NCBI GenBank assembly: GCA_025464755.1
Contig: JAODMI010000115.1
Coordinates: forward strand, 1 to 51,659
Reading direction: 5' to 3'
Length of the DNA stretch: 51,659 bases
Source: Homoserinimonas sp.
Lineage (GTDB): Bacteria > Actinomycetota > Actinomycetes > Actinomycetales > Microbacteriaceae
The position numbers and the translations under genes were made by a program. Shown here piece after piece: positions 3,925-41,145 of this stretch. Below the pieces are notes generated by a model that saw only the letters and a list, made by a program, of their open reading frames with translations, was not told the DNA's origin and did no database searches. Each line of letters begins with the position of its first letter. Position 1 is the first letter of the stretch.

Positions 3925-4530
3925 ATGGATGCGTCGGACCGAGTGGTCGTGTCGCCGACCAGCCGAGTGAAAATTCGGTTGGGAGCGGCAGTGGTGCTTT
4001 TCTTTGTGGCTGTGGCTATAGCCGTTGCGATTTCTGCACTGGGCCCGCACGGGACGACGAAGATGGTTGCGCCCGCGCCCGAGTCGACCACCGCCGCAGC
4101 CCCCACCGCGGTGACAATCTTCGTACACGTTCTCGGAGCTGTGACCCAGCCGGGCCTGTACGAGCTTGGCGAAAACGCCCGAACTGTCGACGCAATAGCC
4201 GCTGCTGGCGGTTTCACCGACACCGCAGACGAGTCGCAGCTCAACCTGGCAAGGTTCGTTAGCGACGGGGAACAAATCGCCATACCTGAGGTGGGTGAGG
4301 TAACCCAGATGCCCCCCACAGCGCCCGGGACGGGCGGGGGCAAGGTCAACCTCAACACTGCAGATGCTGCGACGCTGGAAACTCTTCCTCGTGTCGGTCC
4401 GACGATGTCGGCCCGAATCATCGACTGGCGTACCGCCAATGGGCGCTTCACTGCCATAGACGATTTGACAAGCATCACCGGAATTGGTGAGAAGACGTAC
4501 GTCGCGCTGAAAGATCTGGTCACAGTATGA
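3925..4530 (+). CDS. comEA: ComEA-family DNA-binding competence protein (helix-hairpin-helix)
   Basis: N-terminal TM segment, SLBB-like core (IFVHVLGAVTQPGLYEL) and C-terminal tandem HhH (LNTADAATLETLPRVGP...ITGIGEKT). It lies directly upstream of comEC. Confidence 0.85.
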   Translation: MDASDRVVVSPTSRVKIRLGAAVVLFFVAVAIAVAISALGPHGTTKMVAPAPESTTAAAPTAVTIFVHVLGAVTQPGLYELGENARTVDAIAAAGGFTDTADESQLNLARFVSDGEQIAIPEVGEVTQMPPTAPGTGGGKVNLNTADAATLETLPRVGPTMSARIIDWRTANGRFTAIDDLTSITGIGEKTYVALKDLVTV

Positions 4531-6872
4531 GGGCAGACCTGAGATTAGCCGTCCCGGTTGGGGTTGCCTGGGCGTTCACTGCCGTGTTGATCGCGGTTCC
4601 CTCAGCCCTGCCGTTGAGTTCCGCGGTGTGCTGGGCGCTGGCAGGGATCGCGACGTGTGTCGCGGCGCGAATAAACGCCACAAGACCACGTGCGGAAAGG
4701 ATCCCTGCCGTGAACGCGGTCGCTTTGTGCCTTACTCTTTGCGGACTTCTCCTCTCCTCGGCAACCGTTCACGCCGCATGGCGCCAACCGCAGGTTCTCG
4801 TCGAAGCGGCAGAAGCCGGCCGATCTATCAGCGCGACCGGGGTTACTACGCAACCGGTGCACGAAGGCCAGCCGCGTTTTCGGGCGCTGCTTCATACGGT
4901 TGACATTGGCGGAATATCAACCGAGGTGTCGTTGCCTGTTCTCGTTTTCGGCTCCTTTGAAGATTCCGCGGACATCGGCATCGGTACCCGCGTTCAGCTC
5001 ACCGGGAGGCTGGCCGCTACTGCACCGCAAGATGCTGCGGCGTTCCTGATCTTCACGGACGGGAGCCCAGTCGTGACAAGTCCCCCTCCCGGCTACCTGG
5101 ATTGGGCCAATGACCTTCGTAGGACGTTCCTTGACGCAGCAATGGGCCTGCCAGGCGACGGGGGAGCGTTGCTACCCGGGCTAGCAATTGGCGACACGAC
5201 GGCGGTCAGTGATTCCCTTGACGAGTCGATGAAGGCGTCATCGTTGAGCCACCTCACCGCCGTTTCCGGTGCCAACTGTGCCGTCGTCATTGGGTTGGTC
5301 CTCTTGTGCGGCCGCGCCTTGGGGCTACCGCGTGGCTGGCGCATCGGGGCATCCCTATTTATCCTGCTCGCCTTTGTCACCCTTGTGACTCCGGAGCCGA
5401 GTGTGTTGCGCGCCGCCGTCATGGCAGCACTTGTCCTTCTCGCGATGGCAGTTGGCAGGCCGGTAAGCGGGGTACCGGTTCTCGCCCTCGCCGCCGTCGG
5501 CTTGCTGGCTTTCGACCCTTGGCTAGCGCGCAGTTACGGGTTCACGCTATCGGTGCTCGCCACCGCCGGCCTCCTGACACTTGCGGGTCCGCTTGCCCGC
5601 AAACTTGGTCGCTGGCTGCCGTACCCGATCGCGGTCGCCATCTCAGTGCCCCTTGCCGCTCAGTTGGCGTGCCAGCCTGTGCTGATTTTGCTGAACCCGT
5701 CCCTCCCGACGTACGGTGTGATCGCGAACGTCCTTGCGGGGCCGGCAGCTCCGGTTGCGACCATAGCCGGACTCATTGCCTGTCTGATCCTCCCGGCGCT
5801 TCCCATGGCCGGAATGATGATCGCCCATATCGCCTGGCTGCCATCGGCATGGATTGCCGGTGTTGCTACCTTTTTCAGCCGCCTGCCCGGCGCGAGCCTT
5901 CCGTGGCCTGGCGGTGGGGCCGGGGTAATGCTCCTGCTGACAGCCGCCACCATAATGCTGCTTGTCGTTCTGCGTCCTGCTTTTCTGTCACACAGCATGC
6001 GCCGTGTGGCCGCGTTTGTGTTGGCCGCCGGGTGCGCCGTCTACTTCGGATCCGTGGGTGGCGAGCAGTTACGCCGACGCCTGTCGCCGCCAACCGATTG
6101 GAACATCGCATCCTGTGACGTTGGTCAGGGCGACGCCATTCTGGTGCGCAGCGCCGGTGCTGTTGCCCTCATAGACACGGGCCCAGATCCCGAACTGCTG
6201 TCTTACTGTCTCAGCACCTTGGGCGTCAACCACCTCGATCTGCTCGTGTTGACCCACTTCGATGCCGATCATGTTGGCGGAGCATCTGCCGTTCTTGGGC
6301 AGCCAGCCCATGTTCTTGCCGGGCCCAGCAGCGAGCCGGCAGACGAACTCTTGCTCAGCACATTTGCGCAGGCTGGCGCACTCATTGACCGGCCCTCGCG
6401 TGGACACAGTGGTGAGCTGGGCGAGCTGCGTTGGCGCGTTCTGTGGCCGCCTGCAAAGCTCATCGGGGTTGTGCCCGGCAATCAGGCGAGCGTCGCCATG
6501 TCGTTTCGGGGCGTGGAAGGGTGCGGTAACGCGTGCATCGGATCGGTGTTTTTAGGTGACTTGGGTGAGCAGTCCCAGTCGATGCTGCTTGCCACCAATC
6601 CGCTCGGCGCAGTCGACGTTGTCCACGTCTCGCATCACGGCTCGGCCGATCAGGACGCACGGCTTTACACGCGACTGGATGCCGCAATCGGCCTCATCGG
6701 CGTCGGGGCAGAAAACCGTTATGGCCATCCGAGCGCCGATATCCTGCACACCCTTGCCGGGATCGGAACCACGGTCGCCCGCACCGACCATAACGGTATG
6801 GCCTTGGTATCGTCCACAGTCCGCGGCGTAGAGCTGTGGACGGAGCGCAACGCTGCTACCCCACCCGATTAG
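4527..6872 (+). CDS. comEC: ComEC/Rec2-family DNA internalisation channel with C-terminal metallo-beta-lactamase domain
   Basis: 781 aa polytopic membrane core plus MBL motifs (LTHFDADHVGG, HVSHHGS). ATGA start/stop overlap with comEA. Confidence 0.9.
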   Translation: MRADLRLAVPVGVAWAFTAVLIAVPSALPLSSAVCWALAGIATCVAARINATRPRAERIPAVNAVALCLTLCGLLLSSATVHAAWRQPQVLVEAAEAGRSISATGVTTQPVHEGQPRFRALLHTVDIGGISTEVSLPVLVFGSFEDSADIGIGTRVQLTGRLAATAPQDAAAFLIFTDGSPVVTSPPPGYLDWANDLRRTFLDAAMGLPGDGGALLPGLAIGDTTAVSDSLDESMKASSLSHLTAVSGANCAVVIGLVLLCGRALGLPRGWRIGASLFILLAFVTLVTPEPSVLRAAVMAALVLLAMAVGRPVSGVPVLALAAVGLLAFDPWLARSYGFTLSVLATAGLLTLAGPLARKLGRWLPYPIAVAISVPLAAQLACQPVLILLNPSLPTYGVIANVLAGPAAPVATIAGLIACLILPALPMAGMMIAHIAWLPSAWIAGVATFFSRLPGASLPWPGGGAGVMLLLTAATIMLLVVLRPAFLSHSMRRVAAFVLAAGCAVYFGSVGGEQLRRRLSPPTDWNIASCDVGQGDAILVRSAGAVALIDTGPDPELLSYCLSTLGVNHLDLLVLTHFDADHVGGASAVLGQPAHVLAGPSSEPADELLLSTFAQAGALIDRPSRGHSGELGELRWRVLWPPAKLIGVVPGNQASVAMSFRGVEGCGNACIGSVFLGDLGEQSQSMLLATNPLGAVDVVHVSHHGSADQDARLYTRLDAAIGLIGVGAENRYGHPSADILHTLAGIGTTVARTDHNGMALVSSTVRGVELWTERNAATPPD

Positions 6873-8300: not shown

Positions 8301-8620
8301 GTGTAATAACCTTCTATGTATTTCGAACAATGTTTGGCAGCCGTGACAATCTCCAGGAGATGAACATCACGAGAGCTGGATCGCGGCTGCAGTTCGCACT
8401 GCGATTCGAGAAGCCAAACCGTGTGCGCAAGCCAACACACAACAATACCAGTGATCGACCCGTTCTGGCAATCGACGCCGATCCGGCCCGCCTTGAGGTC
8501 AGCGTCGACGGCAACGCTTCCAGCAGAGTGGAACGGGGGCAGCAATCCGGGCAAAACCTGCGCAGGCCCAACAGCTGGTCACGGTGCACATTTCGGGGTG
8601 GGGCCGCCCGCGACATCCAT

Positions 8621-8710
8621 GAAAATTCAGGAATGTGGCGCCGCGCTGTGGGCAAAAGGCCCCGTGCTCGCGTAATGCAGCTGAAAGAGGCACAACGTTC
8701 CTGAGTTTTC
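8621..8710. repeat. copy A of the inverted 13-mer element (arms 8621-8633 GAAAATTCAGGAA and 8698-8710 TTCCTGAGTTTTC; 64-nt interior)
   Basis: Read directly from the sequence. It is intergenic, between divergent rpsT and lepA. Arm similarity extends outward on both sides (CGAC.ATCC.YGAAAA.TCAGGAA). Confidence 0.8.
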
Positions 8711-8859
8711 GGGGATGCGGTCGTCACAGCGCCATATGGGGTGGGCGTTCGGCGGCCCGCGAAAAGCCCCAGTGAGCGAACAATGACCGATGGGACGGCA
8801 TACGCGCCAGCCGTGGGACAATTGGTGCATTCCATTTTCAGTACCAGTAAGAGGATCGC

Positions 8860-20756: not shown

Positions 20757-20862
20757 CGGGGACCGCCCCTCCCGCGGGGTCGCGCCGCACTGGTCTACGG
20801 GTTTCGCTCGCTGCTGGTCGCGCTCGGCCTGCCCGTCAAGCTCAGCCTGCCCGTCCCGTTAC

Positions 20863-20939
20863 TGAAATTCAGGAACATCCAGCCGCAGATGGCTTACACG
20901 GCATCTCTCCGCCCAACGCGCGGCCGTATTCCTGAAATG
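20863..20939. repeat. copy B of the inverted 13-mer element (arms 20863-20875 and 20929-20939; 53-nt interior)
   Basis: Left arm is TGAAATTCAGGAA. The right arm TTCCTGAAATG is the most degenerate arm, with 2 mismatches in the 11-nt core. It is intergenic, downstream of era. Confidence 0.7.
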
Positions 20940-21023
20940 TGCTCGCCACGGTCAACGGTTTTGAACGCCTCGCGCCGTCGCACGGACAGCGGCCTAACGC
21001 CAGTTGCCAGCGTCGCGCAGCGC

Positions 21024-21103
21024 GGAAATTCAGGAATGTGTCGCGGCTGAGCTGTTGATGTTGGTGCGGGGGTGACCGGAAACGGCTCCGTTCCTGAATT
21101 TTC
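21024..21103. repeat. copy C of the inverted 13-mer element (arms 21024-21036 and 21091-21103; 54-nt interior)
   Basis: GGAAATTCAGGAA ... TTCCTGAATTTTC, both cores perfect. It starts 84 nt after copy B and lies about 390 nt upstream of leuA. Confidence 0.8.
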
Positions 21104-21289
21104 GTGGATGGGCTCCGGGAGACACTCCACGAACACGCGCCCGAAGGGGCGGTACGAACGCACCCAGCGCATACCCGCTGCCTGTACAGGCTCCGTGTCA
21201 ACGCGGCACATCGATTTAGTTGAAATTGCCACATCCTCACAGCAGCGGGACACTGGCGAATCACGGTCGGCGGCGTGAACGGATCATGA

Positions 21290-28901: not shown

Positions 28902-28980
28902 CGCGCGGCGGTGCAGGTGTCACCACACGCGAGGTATCCGTTGTGCACCCTCTGCTCACAGTGCACTCGGTGAAATCTGC

Positions 28981-29059
28981 GAAAATTCAGGAACTTGCGC
29001 TGGTGCGGCTGCAGTGTGGGGCGTTAATCCATCGCGCCGCTGTGGTTTCCTGAATTTTC
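28981..29059. repeat. copy D of the inverted 13-mer element (arms 28981-28993 and 29047-29059; 53-nt interior)
   Basis: GAAAATTCAGGAA ... TTCCTGAATTTTC, both perfect. It starts 79 nt after the glyQS stop and ends 1 nt before the longest possible start of the DUF559 ORF. Confidence 0.85.
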
Positions 29060-30061
29060 GTGGTGCATCGGCACGCGACTCCTCCACAGGTATGTGCAGA
29101 TCTCGTTGCGCGCCAGTGCGGTGACTGCTTCGTTGCTGCTCTCTTGACCGTGCAGGCTACGTACGTGAACGCTGTGGAGAAGTGGGTTCGGCAACTCGGT
29201 GGTTACGCGCAGAAGCAAGAACTCGTTGCGCTGGGGGCGACGGATTATGCGCTCACGCGTGCGGTGAAGAACGGCAGCGTCGTTAGAGCGCGGCAGGGAT
29301 GGTATTCGGTCGCTGTTCCAACGGACCCTGCATTCCGCGCGGTGCGTACCGGCGGGCGCCTAACCGGGCTATCGGCTGTGCGCGCCTCGGGCGGTTGGGT
29401 GCTGGGGCGGAGTGGGCCGCTGCATGTGTCGGTTCCCCGCAACGGGGCACGCCTGAGATCACCGCTGAATCGTCAAATCGCGCTAACCCGGGGCAACAAG
29501 CATGGGGTACGGCTGCACTGGGACGAGCAGGCTGTCATAGGTCGTGGCACTAAAACTGTGGTGGAACTACGCGACGCCCTTTCACGCGTTGTTCGGGATG
29601 AGAACCTTGAAACCGCTGTCGCGGCGATCGATTGGGCCCTGCATAGCAACCGTCTTGACGCGCACACCTTTGAGAAGATGTTGTCCTCGATCCCGCCACG
29701 GCTTCGGTGGATCGGTGACTGGGTGGATGCCCGGTGTGAGAGTCTCCCGGAAAGCTTGGCTCGCACTCGGTTGCGTTTGGCCGGACACCGGGTACGGCTG
29801 CAGGTGAAACTTGGTGACGGTGCGCGAATCGATTTGGTTGTGGACGACATAGTTGGTTTGGAGACTGATGGGGAGGAGTTCCACAGAGATCGTTTTCTGG
29901 ATGACCGTCGCAAAGACATTCAGATTGTTTTCGCGAATTATCATCCGTTCCGAGCGCCAGCCGTGATGGTGTTCCGCGAGTGGCCGGTTGTGCTCGCCGG
30001 TATCGAGCAGGCGATTCTCGACCGCCGAAGGGCAACTGGCGTGCAGAACAGACAAGCGTAG
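29060..30061 (+). CDS. AbiEi_4-like winged-helix + DUF559 (Vsr-like PD-(D/E)xK endonuclease-fold) domain protein
   Basis: N-terminal part LGGYAQKQELVALGATDYALTRAVKNGSVVRARQGWYSV resembles an AbiEi-type wHTH. C-terminal part ...IDLVVDDIVGLETDGEEFH...DDRRKDIQIVFANYHPFRAP resembles the DUF559 D...E.DG..H...D..R core. The true start is probably an internal GTG (29150, 29165 or 29174). Confidence 0.75.
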   Translation: MVHRHATPPQVCADLVARQCGDCFVAALLTVQATYVNAVEKWVRQLGGYAQKQELVALGATDYALTRAVKNGSVVRARQGWYSVAVPTDPAFRAVRTGGRLTGLSAVRASGGWVLGRSGPLHVSVPRNGARLRSPLNRQIALTRGNKHGVRLHWDEQAVIGRGTKTVVELRDALSRVVRDENLETAVAAIDWALHSNRLDAHTFEKMLSSIPPRLRWIGDWVDARCESLPESLARTRLRLAGHRVRLQVKLGDGARIDLVVDDIVGLETDGEEFHRDRFLDDRRKDIQIVFANYHPFRAPAVMVFREWPVVLAGIEQAILDRRRATGVQNRQA

Positions 30062-30105
30062 GGTGCAACGCCGTCATGCAGCGTTGGCACGGCTTCCGAA
30101 CCTAC

Positions 30106-30195
30106 GGAAATTCAGGAACTTGTGGGATACAACGGTTCGCATGGCCCCCGGTGGGACCAGATAGGCGGTGGCCCGCGCTGCGTTCCTGAATTTGC
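30106..30195. repeat. copy E of the inverted 13-mer element (arms 30106-30118 and 30183-30195; 64-nt interior)
   Basis: GGAAATTCAGGAA ... TTCCTGAATTTGC. It starts 44 nt after the DUF559 stop. It has the same orientation as copy D and the same left-end extension (AAATTCAGGAACTTG[C/T]G). Confidence 0.85.
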
Positions 30196-30297
30196 GTAAT
30201 TGCGGGGGAGTCTGGTGGCAGGGGCTGATGGCAATGGACGAGGAGTTTTCCCTGTCGTTGCAGGAATGATCCCGTGCCGGCATGAGTTAGAGCTTTC

Positions 30298-30945: not shown

Positions 30946-31050
30946 CCGGCGGAACGGATCTGTCCCAATCTGCCTTGATGCCCTTGGGTGACATCGACGC
31001 TGTCGTGTGTGAGGGTGACGCCTGTCTCCTGCCTGAATAGGACACACGCA

Positions 31051-31091
31051 AAGAAGACGGGCACCAGCAGATTGCTGGTGCCCGTCTTCTT
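31051..31091. terminator. bidirectional intrinsic terminator between convergent dsbA-like and permease genes
   Basis: 18-bp perfect stem AAGAAGACGGGCACCAGC / GCTGGTGCCCGTCTTCTT (31051-31068 / 31074-31091) with loop AGATT. The stem itself has A-rich and T-rich ends. Confidence 0.75.
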
Positions 31092-31101
31092 CGCCTGAGA
31101 C

Positions 31102-32652
31102 CTACTTGTCGGTGCCGTCTCGGGCGAGCAACCGCTCTTCGACGGCTCCTCCGTATCCCTCGCTTTGCGGATCGCCATGAAGGCCGCCGGACACGGCGTA
31201 CTCTTCTTCCGGCGACATCACCAGCCGGTGGCGTCCCCATACGGCGAAGGCCACGAGCATGACCGCGTAAACGGCGACGATGGCGATGATTGCTGGCTGG
31301 AACGTGGGGTTGAGCAGGAAGCCGAAGAAGATCATCGCGGACAGCAGCGCCGCGATGATGGCGCCGGGCAAGCCCCATGGGCTCACGTAGGGTCGATTCA
31401 CGTTCGGAAATTTCTTGCGCAGTATGACGAATGAAATCATCTGCAGTAGGTAGGCAAGGACGGCGCCCCAGACGGCGATGTTGAGAACGATCGCTCCGGC
31501 AACAGCTCCGGCTCCTTCTTCATCCAGGCTGCTGAGAACGTCAACGACGATCAGAGCTATGAAGCCGATAATTGCGCCGGCAAGGAGGGCTACCCACGGT
31601 GTCTGACGCTTACCGGTCAGGGAAAGAAACTTCGGGTAGTACCCCGCCCGTGACAGGGAATACATGTTGCGTCCGTAAGCGAACATGATGCCTTGAAGCG
31701 AGGCGAACAGGCCAACCAGGGCGAAGAGGGCCAGAACCGCAGCCAGGCTGTCGCCGACCATAGCGCGGAATCCGTCGAGTAGTGGTTCCTCGGAAACCCC
31801 GGTCGCTTCCGCTCCGATGATGCCGGTGTTGAAGAAGAGTACGAGAAGGCCGGTGACGATCAGCGTTCCGCGCGCCCACAGCCCCGCCCGCGGAATGTCG
31901 CGCACAGGGTTGTGCGCTTCCTCTGCGGCGAGTGGTAGCTCCTCGATGCCGAGGAAGAACCACATGGCGAAGGGAAGTGCGAAGAGGATGGGCAGGATGC
32001 CGTGGGGAAGGAATGCGCTTTGACCCGGATCCGGCACGATGTTGAACAAGTTGTCCCAAGAGAACAACCCGGAGAAGGCCGCCATAGCGGAGAACACGAG
32101 AAGGATTCCGATCGAAATGATGGATACCACGATGGCGAATTTGAACGAAATGTTGGCTCCGGCGGTGTTTAGCAAGATGAAGATCGCATACAGAATCGCC
32201 CACCATACCCATCCCGGCATTGAGAATCCGAGTAGCTCAGACGTGATGCCGTCGGCGTAGGACGCTGAGAAGTAGACGATCACGGCGGTCGTCGCCACGT
32301 ATTCGATTGTTTCGGCAAGTCCGGTGATGAATCCTCCCCACGGCCCCATTGCCGCTCGGGAAAAGGAGTAGGCGCCGCCGGTGTGCGGCATGGCGGAGGC
32401 CATCTCTCCAATGGAGAAAATCATGCCGTAGTACATGACCACCAAGAGGGCGAATGCGATGAGCATCCCACCGAAGCCGGCGAATTCGATTCCGAAGTTC
32501 CAGCCGGAGAAGTCACCGGATATCACCGCTCCAACGGCTAGGCCCCACAGCCCCCAGACTCCGGCGGCTCGTTTGAGCTTGCGTTTTTCGAAGTAGCCGT
32601 CGGCGGCGGTCGTATATTTCACGCCGGAGACTCGCAGAGTATCTTTGGTCAT
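31102..32652 (-). CDS. APC-superfamily amino acid/ethanolamine permease (Eat-like)
   Basis: About 516 aa, roughly 12 TM. The N-terminal GYFEKRKLKRAAGVWGLWGLAVGAVISGDFSGWNFG... matches my memory of ethanolamine permeases. ATG 32652 (MTKDTL) is preferred over the ORF-track start at 32709. Confidence 0.8.
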   Translation of the reverse strand: MTKDTLRVSGVKYTTAADGYFEKRKLKRAAGVWGLWGLAVGAVISGDFSGWNFGIEFAGFGGMLIAFALLVVMYYGMIFSIGEMASAMPHTGGAYSFSRAAMGPWGGFITGLAETIEYVATTAVIVYFSASYADGITSELLGFSMPGWVWWAILYAIFILLNTAGANISFKFAIVVSIISIGILLVFSAMAAFSGLFSWDNLFNIVPDPGQSAFLPHGILPILFALPFAMWFFLGIEELPLAAEEAHNPVRDIPRAGLWARGTLIVTGLLVLFFNTGIIGAEATGVSEEPLLDGFRAMVGDSLAAVLALFALVGLFASLQGIMFAYGRNMYSLSRAGYYPKFLSLTGKRQTPWVALLAGAIIGFIALIVVDVLSSLDEEGAGAVAGAIVLNIAVWGAVLAYLLQMISFVILRKKFPNVNRPYVSPWGLPGAIIAALLSAMIFFGFLLNPTFQPAIIAIVAVYAVMLVAFAVWGRHRLVMSPEEEYAVSGGLHGDPQSEGYGGAVEERLLARDGTDK

Positions 32653-40951: not shown

Positions 40952-41003
40952 GAGCACCTGCTACAGCGTGAGGCCTGTCGTCATCCCGCGCCCGAGCATT
41001 TCG

Positions 41004-41082
41004 TAAAATTCAGGTATATGCAGTCCCGGTGCTGCACAGTCGCCGCTTATGTCGCGGAGCTGGGCGCACTTCCTGAATTTCC
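41004..41082. repeat. copy F of the inverted 13-mer element (arms 41004-41016 and 41070-41082; 53-nt interior)
   Basis: TAAAATTCAGGTA (1 core mismatch) ... TTCCTGAATTTCC. It lies between convergent dgt and the aldehyde dehydrogenase gene. Confidence 0.75.
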
Positions 41083-41145
41083 ACGTTTTCGATGAATGGG
41101 ATGACCCGGTCGGACGCGTTTGCTACGTCCGACCGGGTCACTTGG

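Follow-up and report, generated by a model that had tools for sequence, protein, structure and literature searches.

A gene for a predicted 298-aa nuclease in Homoserinimonas sp., lying between glyS and a dsbA-like gene, is bracketed by two copies of a short intergenic repeat with inverted arms on a stretch of 51,659 nt (contig JAODMI010000115.1; hereafter the window, to which all coordinates refer unless a locus is named). The same bracketing is found in about 80 species at this locus, and different repeats surround distant members of the protein family, showing that the association, as the initial annotation of the window had proposed, is not a product of chance. One residue in the predicted DNA-binding wing of the protein also covaries with one base of the repeat arms. 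We read the presumed sequence-specific endonuclease and its bracketing elements as a module resembling the REPIN/RAYT partnership but built on an enzyme outside the HUH class, a reading for which our belief and our doubt are about evenly matched.

A nuclease gene between two copies of a repeat

The window contains 11 matches to the arm motif AAATTCAGGAA with at most one mismatch, where 0.49 would be expected; none of 100 shuffles reached that number. All 11 matches resolve into six arm-pair elements (A to F), every one of them intergenic. Each element consists of inverted arms of 14-20 nt, (C)G(G/A)AAATTCAGGA ... TCCTGAATTT(C/T)CG, enclosing a spacer; written around the motif, the arms read (C)G(G/A)AAATTCAGGAA ... 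TTCCTGAATTT(T/C)CG, with an interior of 53-54 or 64 nt that differs between copies. The gene and the elements lie as follows.

8620..8711 (arm pair 8623-8708), strand., copy A: dispersed and intergenic, 64-nt interior class
20862..20940 (arm pair 20865-~20936), strand., copy B: dispersed, with a good left arm and a degenerate right arm TTCCTGAAATG
21023..21104 (arm pair 21026-21101), strand., copy C: dispersed and intergenic, 54-nt interior class
28980..29060 (arm pair 28983-29057), strand., copy D: upstream bracket, arms CGAAAATTCAGGAA / TTCCTGAATTTTCG
29165..30061, strand +, nuclease gene, 298 aa: start taken from database gene call P0001 and orthologue N-termini
30105..30196 (arm pair 30108-30193), strand., copy E: downstream bracket, arms CGGAAATTCAGGAA / TTCCTGAATTTGCG, 64-nt interior
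41003..41083 (arm pair 41006-41080), strand., copy F: between convergent genes, 53-nt interior, one mismatch in the left arm

Copy D begins 82 nt past the glyS stop (28901) and copy E 44-47 nt past the stop of the nuclease gene (30061), in line with the 44 nt given initially. The size classes then reported for the two interiors stand as well (53 nt between the 8-mer cores in D, 64 nt in E), and D and E bear out their description as best mutual matches in having the inner arm extension AGGAACTTG in common; A and C share AGGAATGTG at that place. The interiors of D and E are unrelated. Copy B is placed 161 nt upstream of copy C. The window contains no solo arms and no paralogue of the nuclease gene.

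The bracketing is conserved across Microbacteriaceae

We assembled 83 Microbacteriaceae loci (the window and L001-L082) that carry the gene at glyS-gene-dsbA or an equivalent position. A scan of species-representative genomes contributed 80 loci from 80 different species, each genome with one gene copy, and the genera represented are Salinibacterium, Rhodoglobus, Conyzicola, Glaciihabitans, Lacisediminihabitans, Galbitalea, Marisediminicola, Parafrigoribacterium, Homoserinimonas, Microcella, Yonghaparkia, Frigoribacterium and Pseudolysinimonas. The closest homologues, in L001 and L002, have the same aminotransferase-glyS-gene-dsbA synteny and the same flanking elements as the window. Counted with a detector that tolerates arm variants, an upstream element lies 100-200 nt before the start in 74 of 81 loci, an element is present at the 3' end of the gene in at least 64 of 81, and both flanks are occupied in at least 61 of 79; the loci missed by a first detector have the same layout with variant arms. 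Over 10 kb to either side, the two 250-nt bins next to the gene hold 75 and 65 elements and no other bin more than 11, so that element density is 2.3 per kb at the gene flanks against 0.10 per kb elsewhere, an enrichment of about 22-fold. In many genomes, such as those of S. amurskyense (L036) and R. aureus (L032), the flanking elements are the only copies in 20 kb. Single copy, vertical inheritance and conserved synteny, all properties of RAYT genes, are thus found here too.

Database gene calls at this locus often extend the open reading frame (ORF) into the downstream repeat, which yields C-terminal 'GNSG...PEFP' or 'EIQEF'/'EIQE' tails. These tails are translated arms, and the downstream element therefore starts at the very end of the gene. 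One call of 573 aa (P0036) is fused to DsbA, another (P0071) contains a run of GNSGQGNLGQGNSG..., suggesting arms repeated in tandem, and the NCBI record of P0011 labels the protein 'glycyl-tRNA synthetase'. As a practical matter, gene callers that run into the downstream repeat produce spurious tails or DsbA fusions.

A wing-tip residue covaries with an arm base

The arms are CGGAAAYTCAGGA in most lineages, CGGCAACTCAGGA in L021, L026, L035 and L080, CRACAAYTCAGGA in Microcella and Yonghaparkia, and CGAGGACTCAGG in Frigoribacterium. Within one genome the arm type matches between left and right arms and across upstream, downstream and dispersed copies, down to a genome-specific inner extension. 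On the protein side, the wing-tip residue X of the motif R-x-R-X-G-W-Y is Q44 in the window, sitting in a modelled beta-hairpin with strands at residues 40-43 and 46-48, and its identity follows the fourth base of the arm. Glutamine is paired with A in 41 of 41 cases and asparagine with A in 19 of 19 (60 of 60 for the two), arginine with C in 17 of 18, and leucine with G in 3 of 3; the lone exception stems from a false-positive element in the consensus for that locus. Pairing of Gln or Asn with A, and of Arg with the guanine in a C:G pair, agrees with classic residue-base preferences. On a neighbour-joining tree the arginine/C state appears in the Microcella clade, in L021, L026 and L035 inside the Gln/Asn majority, and in L080 within Frigoribacterium, which amounts to at least three separate clades. 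Such covariation is the pattern expected if the wing reads arm base 4. It lends strong circumstantial support, at the level of sequence, to the initial proposal that the protein may bind the arms, and stops short of proof because the independent transitions are few.

The locus of Frigoribacterium sp. CFBP 13712 (L080) combines GGCAAC arms with 'AHK' and RRGWY and resembles the Rhodoglobus subgroup; L071, L072 and L076, from the same genus, have GAGGAC arms with 'ATR' and RLGWY. The L080 type could reflect convergence or replacement at the same locus by horizontal transfer.

A predicted AbiEi-like DNA binder fused to a Vsr-type nuclease

The longest ORF of the gene opens at GTG 29060, abutting the extended arm of copy D (..TTTTCG), and the initial statement that D ends 1 nt before the start is accurate for this ORF. 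It does not apply to the likely start. The database call and the orthologue N-termini all align to GTG 29165, 104-107 nt downstream of copy D, and the abutment is therefore an artefact of choosing the longest ORF; the true start is probably GTG 29165 and the protein 298 aa long.

The protein begins with an AbiEi-type winged helix (residues ~3-49), followed by a middle domain that is also AbiEi-like, and ends in a nuclease (~195-290), the last being a Vsr/DUF559/MTES_1575-type PD-(D/E)xK domain according to Pfam, a structural model and fold search. For the window protein, Pfam gave AbiEi_4 at E 6e-5 and 23.5 bits (gathering score 25), the Vsr-family restriction endonuclease domain MTES_1575 at E 0.003 and 18.2 bits (cut-off 38.2), and no DUF559 match at E<=1. 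Among 20 orthologues, MTES_1575 was matched in 18 (E<=0.01), AbiEi_4 in 7 and DUF559 in 2. MTES_1575 was defined as a novel Vsr-family restriction endonuclease domain (PMC3710099), and DUF559 has been placed in the Vsr clade of PD-(D/E)xK enzymes (PMC3424549). An AlphaFold2 model built from the orthologue alignment (pLDDT 86, pTM 0.82) was compared with known structures by Foldseek. The N-terminal ~200 residues matched the AbiEi antitoxin 6y8q (E 1e-5) and Rv2827c (1zel, E 8e-4), and the C-terminal ~100 residues matched the DUF559 protein 3hrl and the Vsr-like homing endonuclease I-Bth0305I (3r3p), each with a target TM of 0.74; a profile search of the PDB also returned 3hrl, at E 0.44, with the catalytic motif aligned. 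The winged helix and DUF559 domain first assigned to the protein are both recovered at the level of fold, whereas in Pfam DUF559 itself is unmatched and AbiEi_4 falls just below its gathering score.

Residues D223, E233, G236, H240, D247 and K250 are invariant among orthologues at 39-71% identity, making up the motif D..ExDG..H..D..K, and D223, E233, D235 and D247 are retained in relatives at ~30% identity as well. The catalytic residues, on whose integrity the initial proposal had depended, are intact, and their conservation indicates that the nuclease site is under selection. Neither Pfam nor fold search identified a HUH/Y1 transposase, in agreement with the suggestion that the enzyme is of another class.

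The gene's 5' region contains one further conserved motif.

29079..29091, strand +, motif CTCCTCCACAGG: between copy D and the gene start, identified by eye in the 5' regions of ~75 loci

This motif recurs, as judged by eye, 25-35 nt past the upstream element in most orthologous loci, and may be an operator or promoter element. In many loci the C-rich form yCTCCTCCACAG (29079-29091 in the window) is followed ~30 nt on by TCCACmGAT, and the distant family member L090 has CTCCTCCTCCCCAC after its upstream element. By eye, too, the window carries a -10-like hexamer, CAGGCT, at 29153-29158, 6 nt before the start codon and without a Shine-Dalgarno sequence; an equivalent hexamer, CAGGAT or GATGCT, is found in L003, L015, L027, L045, L057, L002 and the Salinibacterium loci. 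The position of this hexamer suggests a leaderless mRNA transcribed from the gene's own promoter.

The element is a pair of phased arms around a free spacer

Mirror complementarity within the element exceeds 70% for ~16 nt, is ~50% over the next six and falls to background (~0.3) beyond. Folded singly, the window copies each give a long-stemmed hairpin (z of about -3 to -5). The interior on its own scores -0.53 against -0.22 for random genomic segments, and with mirror complementarity at background beyond ~20 nt we rejected a long structured hairpin as a description of the element. Counted from TCAGG to CCTGA, interior lengths fall into groups of 57-59, 67-71 and 78-81 nt, a step of ~11 nt. 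This step equals the helical repeat of DNA, and its simplest explanation is that two sites have to lie on one face of the double helix. Elements of the 68-70 nt class carry a small palindrome at their centre, CCCG-(A/T-rich loop)-CGGG. A supposed class of 91-92 nt proved largely a false positive in the uppS coding sequence (L015:1243-1354, L027:3192-3303, L045:4757-4868), where a chance arm-like pair is conserved as protein sequence.

The 12 nt on either side of 270 elements are C-rich 5' and G-rich 3', symmetrically and outside a conserved TT..AA, a composition that could reflect an extended recognition site or a target preference. In the same 270 elements no direct repeat of 2-8 nt, at offsets of 0-6, exceeded three times expectation as a target-site duplication would. 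We also considered and dropped an intrinsic terminator (the elements have no U-tract, their 3' flank is G-rich, and a terminator scan was empty at D and E) and a known RNA family or an element linked to tRNA, since Rfam, searched at its gathering thresholds, gave only a distant tRNA-Asn.

Distant family members are bracketed by repeats of their own

A profile search of 1.84 billion representative sequences retrieved 2,762 clusters at 50% identity, of which 355 scored E<=1e-30, mostly over the full length. We placed five distant members (29-38% identity) on contigs; the loci sampled are actinobacterial.

L088, 1,147-nt contig starting at the gene, without neighbours: downstream element only
L089, thyX..gene-dapA-rnj: solitary gene
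L090, acn-dxs..gene: solitary gene
L091, between transporter genes: solitary gene
L092, rplM-rpsI-glmM-gene-coaA: solitary gene

In L089, L090, L091 and L092 the gene has its own inverted-arm elements on both sides, and the arms differ, with examples including GTTGTGCAGGA, CGAAATTAGGAGTGG, GATCAGGAGATCC and GAAATTCATGCAT. Three copies in L089 have a homologous interior, and the two flanking copies in L091 are 84% identical over 121 nt. These homologous interiors indicate that elements can be duplicated as whole units, and the unrelated interiors in the window's clade probably reflect age.

The three L089 elements lie at 4013-4109, 4755-4851 and 5904-6019 of that locus, one of them a gene further upstream. 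Their arms are duplicated in tandem with a 19-nt period, giving two left arms upstream and three right arms downstream.

Turnover of dispersed copies and co-occurrence with the gene

Among 279 elements compared with one another, the only pairs with similar interiors were two local tandem duplications (in L020 and L047), and none combined a similar interior with different flanks. Close tandem pairs, 160-200 nt apart, are present at B/C in the window (20865-21101), at L020:115-410 and at L047:16669-16931, and the pairs in L020 and L047 are similar in both interior and flanks. The tandem pairs suggest local segmental duplication as one route by which copies arise.

Two dispersed positions could be followed between genomes. 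Upstream of glyS, three genera keep identical 23-nt arms with diverged interiors and a changed size class, and a fourth has a solo right arm left by a deletion. In the dgt-dnaG spacer, four genomes have an element with GGAAAT arms, L026 has one with GGCAAC arms, and L035, the sister of L026, has none. Turnover at these sites implies that dispersed copies are gained, lost and converted to the arm type of the genome over time. The bracketing copies, unlike the dispersed ones, are almost always kept. Searches for precise empty sites by projecting flanks with BLAST were too noisy at species-level divergence, and the one clear case from a stricter screen for clean excision, L027 against L015, was a deletion leaving a solo right arm.

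Five relatives lack the gene, with no tblastn match to it: Microterricola viridarii, M. pindariensis, Cryobacterium mesophilum, C. tepidiphilum and Glaciibacter psychrotolerans. Their junctions read uppS-dsbA or glyS-adh-dsbA. The initial annotation had envisaged an empty glyS/dsbA junction with one solo element in related strains; all five junctions are without any element, and this expectation fails. The 73 kb of syntenic DNA from the five genomes contains no element at all, in line with the proposed link as far as these regions go. Of the gene-holding loci of at least 12 kb, 64 of 65 have at least one element and 42 of 65 a copy away from the gene flanks. This co-occurrence of gene and elements is suggestive but limited.

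We rejected a phage origin: no exact match to the element was found in viral contigs, and the protein had only a weak PHROG match of unknown function.

A proposed repeat-associated nuclease module and its alternatives

In the model that we favour, the AbiEi-type winged helix would recognise the 14-20 nt arms and the Vsr/DUF559-type domain would act at or near them. A protein oligomer would probably contact both arms of an element at once, from one side of the double-stranded DNA, in which case a spacer quantised in length (~11 nt) but free in sequence is understandable. The gene and its two bracketing elements would form an ancient, single-copy, vertically inherited module, and the solo elements elsewhere would be further cognate sites created, duplicated or maintained by the protein: a functional analogue of the REPIN/RAYT partnership in which a PD-(D/E)xK enzyme takes the place of the HUH transposase. 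That the protein binds the arms we consider likely; experiments have shown that AbiEi and Rv2827c bind inverted repeats next to the genes that encode them, in their own promoters (PMC7319586). That the nuclease cuts at the arms and is responsible for spreading or homogenising the elements is a step we can imagine almost as readily as we doubt it.

Several observations weigh against this model. DNA binding and cleavage are both things that we infer. All Pfam matches of the window protein lie under the gathering thresholds, and the covariation is partly confounded with phylogeny, with ~3-4 independent transitions. The Microbacteriaceae clade bears no trace of recent copying and pasting, the interiors of non-orthologous elements being unrelated in the all-against-all comparison of the 279 elements; upstream and downstream interiors in this clade are no closer than random pairs (p = 0.19), and target-site duplications are absent. 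Orthologous elements that keep their arms while the interiors drift are what binding sites under selection would produce as readily as mobile DNA. Finally, the co-occurrence test covers syntenic regions only, in five genomes from three genera.

Much of this would suit an autoregulated transcription factor with a regulon, the main rival, whose arm pairs would be operators repressing its own promoter or read-through from glyS, with the downstream and other elements serving as insulators or regulators, the nuclease domain turned to repair or oligomerisation, and copies spread by ordinary duplication. AbiEi and Rv2827c, which the protein matches in fold, are autoregulators acting on inverted repeats (PMC7319586), the distance between the upstream element and the start is fixed, spacing in helical phase would suit proteins that bind double-stranded DNA cooperatively, and arms persisting at orthologous positions while interiors drift, with no sign of recent transposition in this clade, are what operators would show. 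A regulator thus explains conservation in place and phasing, but not the whole-unit copies in L089 and L091, which are duplicated units and not convergent operators, nor the strictly conserved nuclease active site. A joint switch from A to C and from Gln to Arg across a whole regulon is also hard to achieve by selection, and the dispersed copies carry their genome's own arm type; occupancy of dispersed positions differs between genera; and autoregulation has no need of a copy at the 3' end in nearly every species. On balance we regard the regulator as unlikely, if deserving of serious attention. Direct repeats that bracket the gene and still share an interior in L091 and L089 would be accounted for by a selfish homing insertion, in which a Vsr-like endonuclease nicks both arms of a solo element on opposite strands and fill-in duplicates the element, the long stagger giving element-gene-element and the solo elements being empty targets, not products. 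The resemblance of the nuclease domain to I-Bth0305I (3r3p, target TM 0.74), the different housekeeping intergenic regions occupied by family members and the want of short target-site duplications agree with it. However, the Microbacteriaceae gene is fixed at one locus, in single copy, across the whole clade, relatives lacking it show no solo target element at or close to the junction, the third homologous copy in L089 is separated from the gene by another gene, and the origin of the solo elements goes unexplained. Homing is improbable as the explanation of the present pattern, and a homing-type event with a long target duplication is possible as the module's origin.

Two further readings fare worse. 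If the element worked in RNA, transcript hairpins would act as 3'-end stabilisers or terminators, with the gene insulated by them or its protein acting on the hairpin. The long-stemmed folds of the individual copies (z about -3 to -5), their intergenic positions, usually just past gene ends, and the central CCCG-loop-CGGG mini-hairpin of the 68-70 nt class would all fit, but only the arms contribute to the fold signal, the interior behaving like control DNA and lacking mirror complementarity; there is no U-tract, the 3' flank is G-rich, Rfam has no match, and the 11-nt step suits the helical repeat of DNA and not a hairpin. Neither the 22-fold concentration at one gene nor the residue-base covariation would follow, and we consider an RNA role very improbable. 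As for coincidence, in which a generic REP-like (repetitive extragenic palindromic) repeat would flank an unrelated gene by accident, two-sided flanking of some gene is conceivable in the window taken alone, given its six copies in 51.6 kb. Bracketing in at least 61 of 79 species, many of them without other copies nearby, its recurrence with different repeats at distant homologues, and the residue-base covariation effectively refute it.

Relation to known systems

The RAYT examples known to us come mainly from Proteobacteria; the host here belongs to the Actinobacteria. To our knowledge RAYT is the only enzyme tied to REP-type repeats, our literature searches having given no other, and we know of no account of the origin and persistence of most other intergenic repeat families (ERIC, Correia, BOX). 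The module resembles REPIN/RAYT systems (Bertels & Rainey 2011, PMC3116915; PMC5581495) in its single-copy, vertically inherited gene in conserved synteny, flanked by its presumed substrate repeat, in the intergenic inverted arm pairs, and in the way repeat type tracks protein type. It differs in pairing a winged helix with a Vsr-type PD-(D/E)xK nuclease where RAYTs are IS200-like HUH/Y1 transposases; in its short arms around a free, phase-quantised spacer, a REPIN being conserved along its whole length; in its low element density of about 0.1 per kb; and probably in the recognition of double-stranded DNA as opposed to single-stranded hairpins. REPINs are inverted doublets that replicate as whole units and are scattered in tens to hundreds of intergenic copies; here six intergenic arm pairs are present in 51.6 kb, and homology over the whole unit is seen in L089 and L091 only.

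Among its protein relatives, AbiEi and Rv2827c (6y8q, 1zel; PMC7319586) have the fold of the N-terminal ~200 aa and bind inverted repeats at their own genes cooperatively. They lack the C-terminal nuclease domain, whereas the protein described here also has candidate sites on both sides of its gene and dispersed, with the arms of a pair 55-90 bp apart. It is not part of an AbiE type IV toxin-antitoxin pair: AbiEii (DUF1814) is absent, and each of the loci examined has glyS and dsbA as neighbours. Nor did it match a known defence system, PADLOC returning only weak AbiEi hits (E 5.6e-4). The C-terminal ~100 aa have the fold and the D..ExDG..H motif of Vsr/DUF559/MTES_1575 enzymes (1cw0, 3hrl, 3r3p; PMC3424549, PMC3710099), from which the window protein departs in scoring below the Pfam thresholds, in its location outside any intron or phage gene, in its fusion to an AbiEi-like DNA binder and in its tie to a genomic repeat. 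Vsr enzymes of very-short-patch repair nick 5' of T in T:G mismatches at Dcm sites and have a cytosine methylase as partner. In the loci examined we saw no cytosine methylase beside the gene, and there is no evident link to T:G repair.

Short non-coding elements with terminal inverted repeats alongside a coding unit with the same ends also recall miniature inverted-repeat transposable elements (MITEs) with their autonomous insertion sequences, and IS200/IS605 with its subterminal hairpins, as do the whole-element homologous copies of some lineages (L089). Here, by contrast, target-site duplications and DDE or HUH transposases are missing, the coding unit ends on both sides in a complete arm pair where a single inverted repeat would be usual, it is immobile and in single copy across a bacterial family, and interiors are unrelated in the window's clade. 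Conserved ends around a variable centre also recall integron attC sites, an analogy that we dropped: an integrase is absent, the gene content does not vary, and the arms show sequence conservation.

In full-text literature searches no paper connected REP-like repeats with proteins of the DUF559, MTES_1575 or AbiEi-domain kind, nor did any treat REPIN/RAYT-type systems from Actinobacteria, consistent with the initial impression that the link had not been described. Together, the bracketing in about 80 species, its distant recurrence and what looks like a specificity code of one residue and one base link a different enzyme class to a palindromic repeat of its own. Should the protein act on the repeats, a nuclease and a repeat would have been domesticated together at least twice, by different chemistry, and a function would be assigned to a very large 'DUF559/AbiEi-domain' family now annotated as Vsr repair enzymes, antitoxins and even glycyl-tRNA synthetase; should mobilisation or maintenance by the nuclease be true, this would be a new class of repeat-associated enzyme. 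More tentatively, and with the doubt outweighing the belief, proteins combining an AbiEi winged helix with a Vsr-type nuclease (~290 aa; 2,762 clusters) may be an unrecognised class of this kind, each reading through its winged helix the cognate arms around its gene and generating, spreading or homogenising copies of the element. Such a class would work on phased double-stranded sites, mechanistically independent of HUH action on single-stranded hairpins.

An unrelated inverted repeat downstream of the module

Between the dsbA-like gene and a convergent amino-acid permease gene, positions 31038-31104 of the window form a 32-nt inverted repeat, 88% complementary, with a 3-nt loop, which is probably a bidirectional terminator with no relation to the repeat family.

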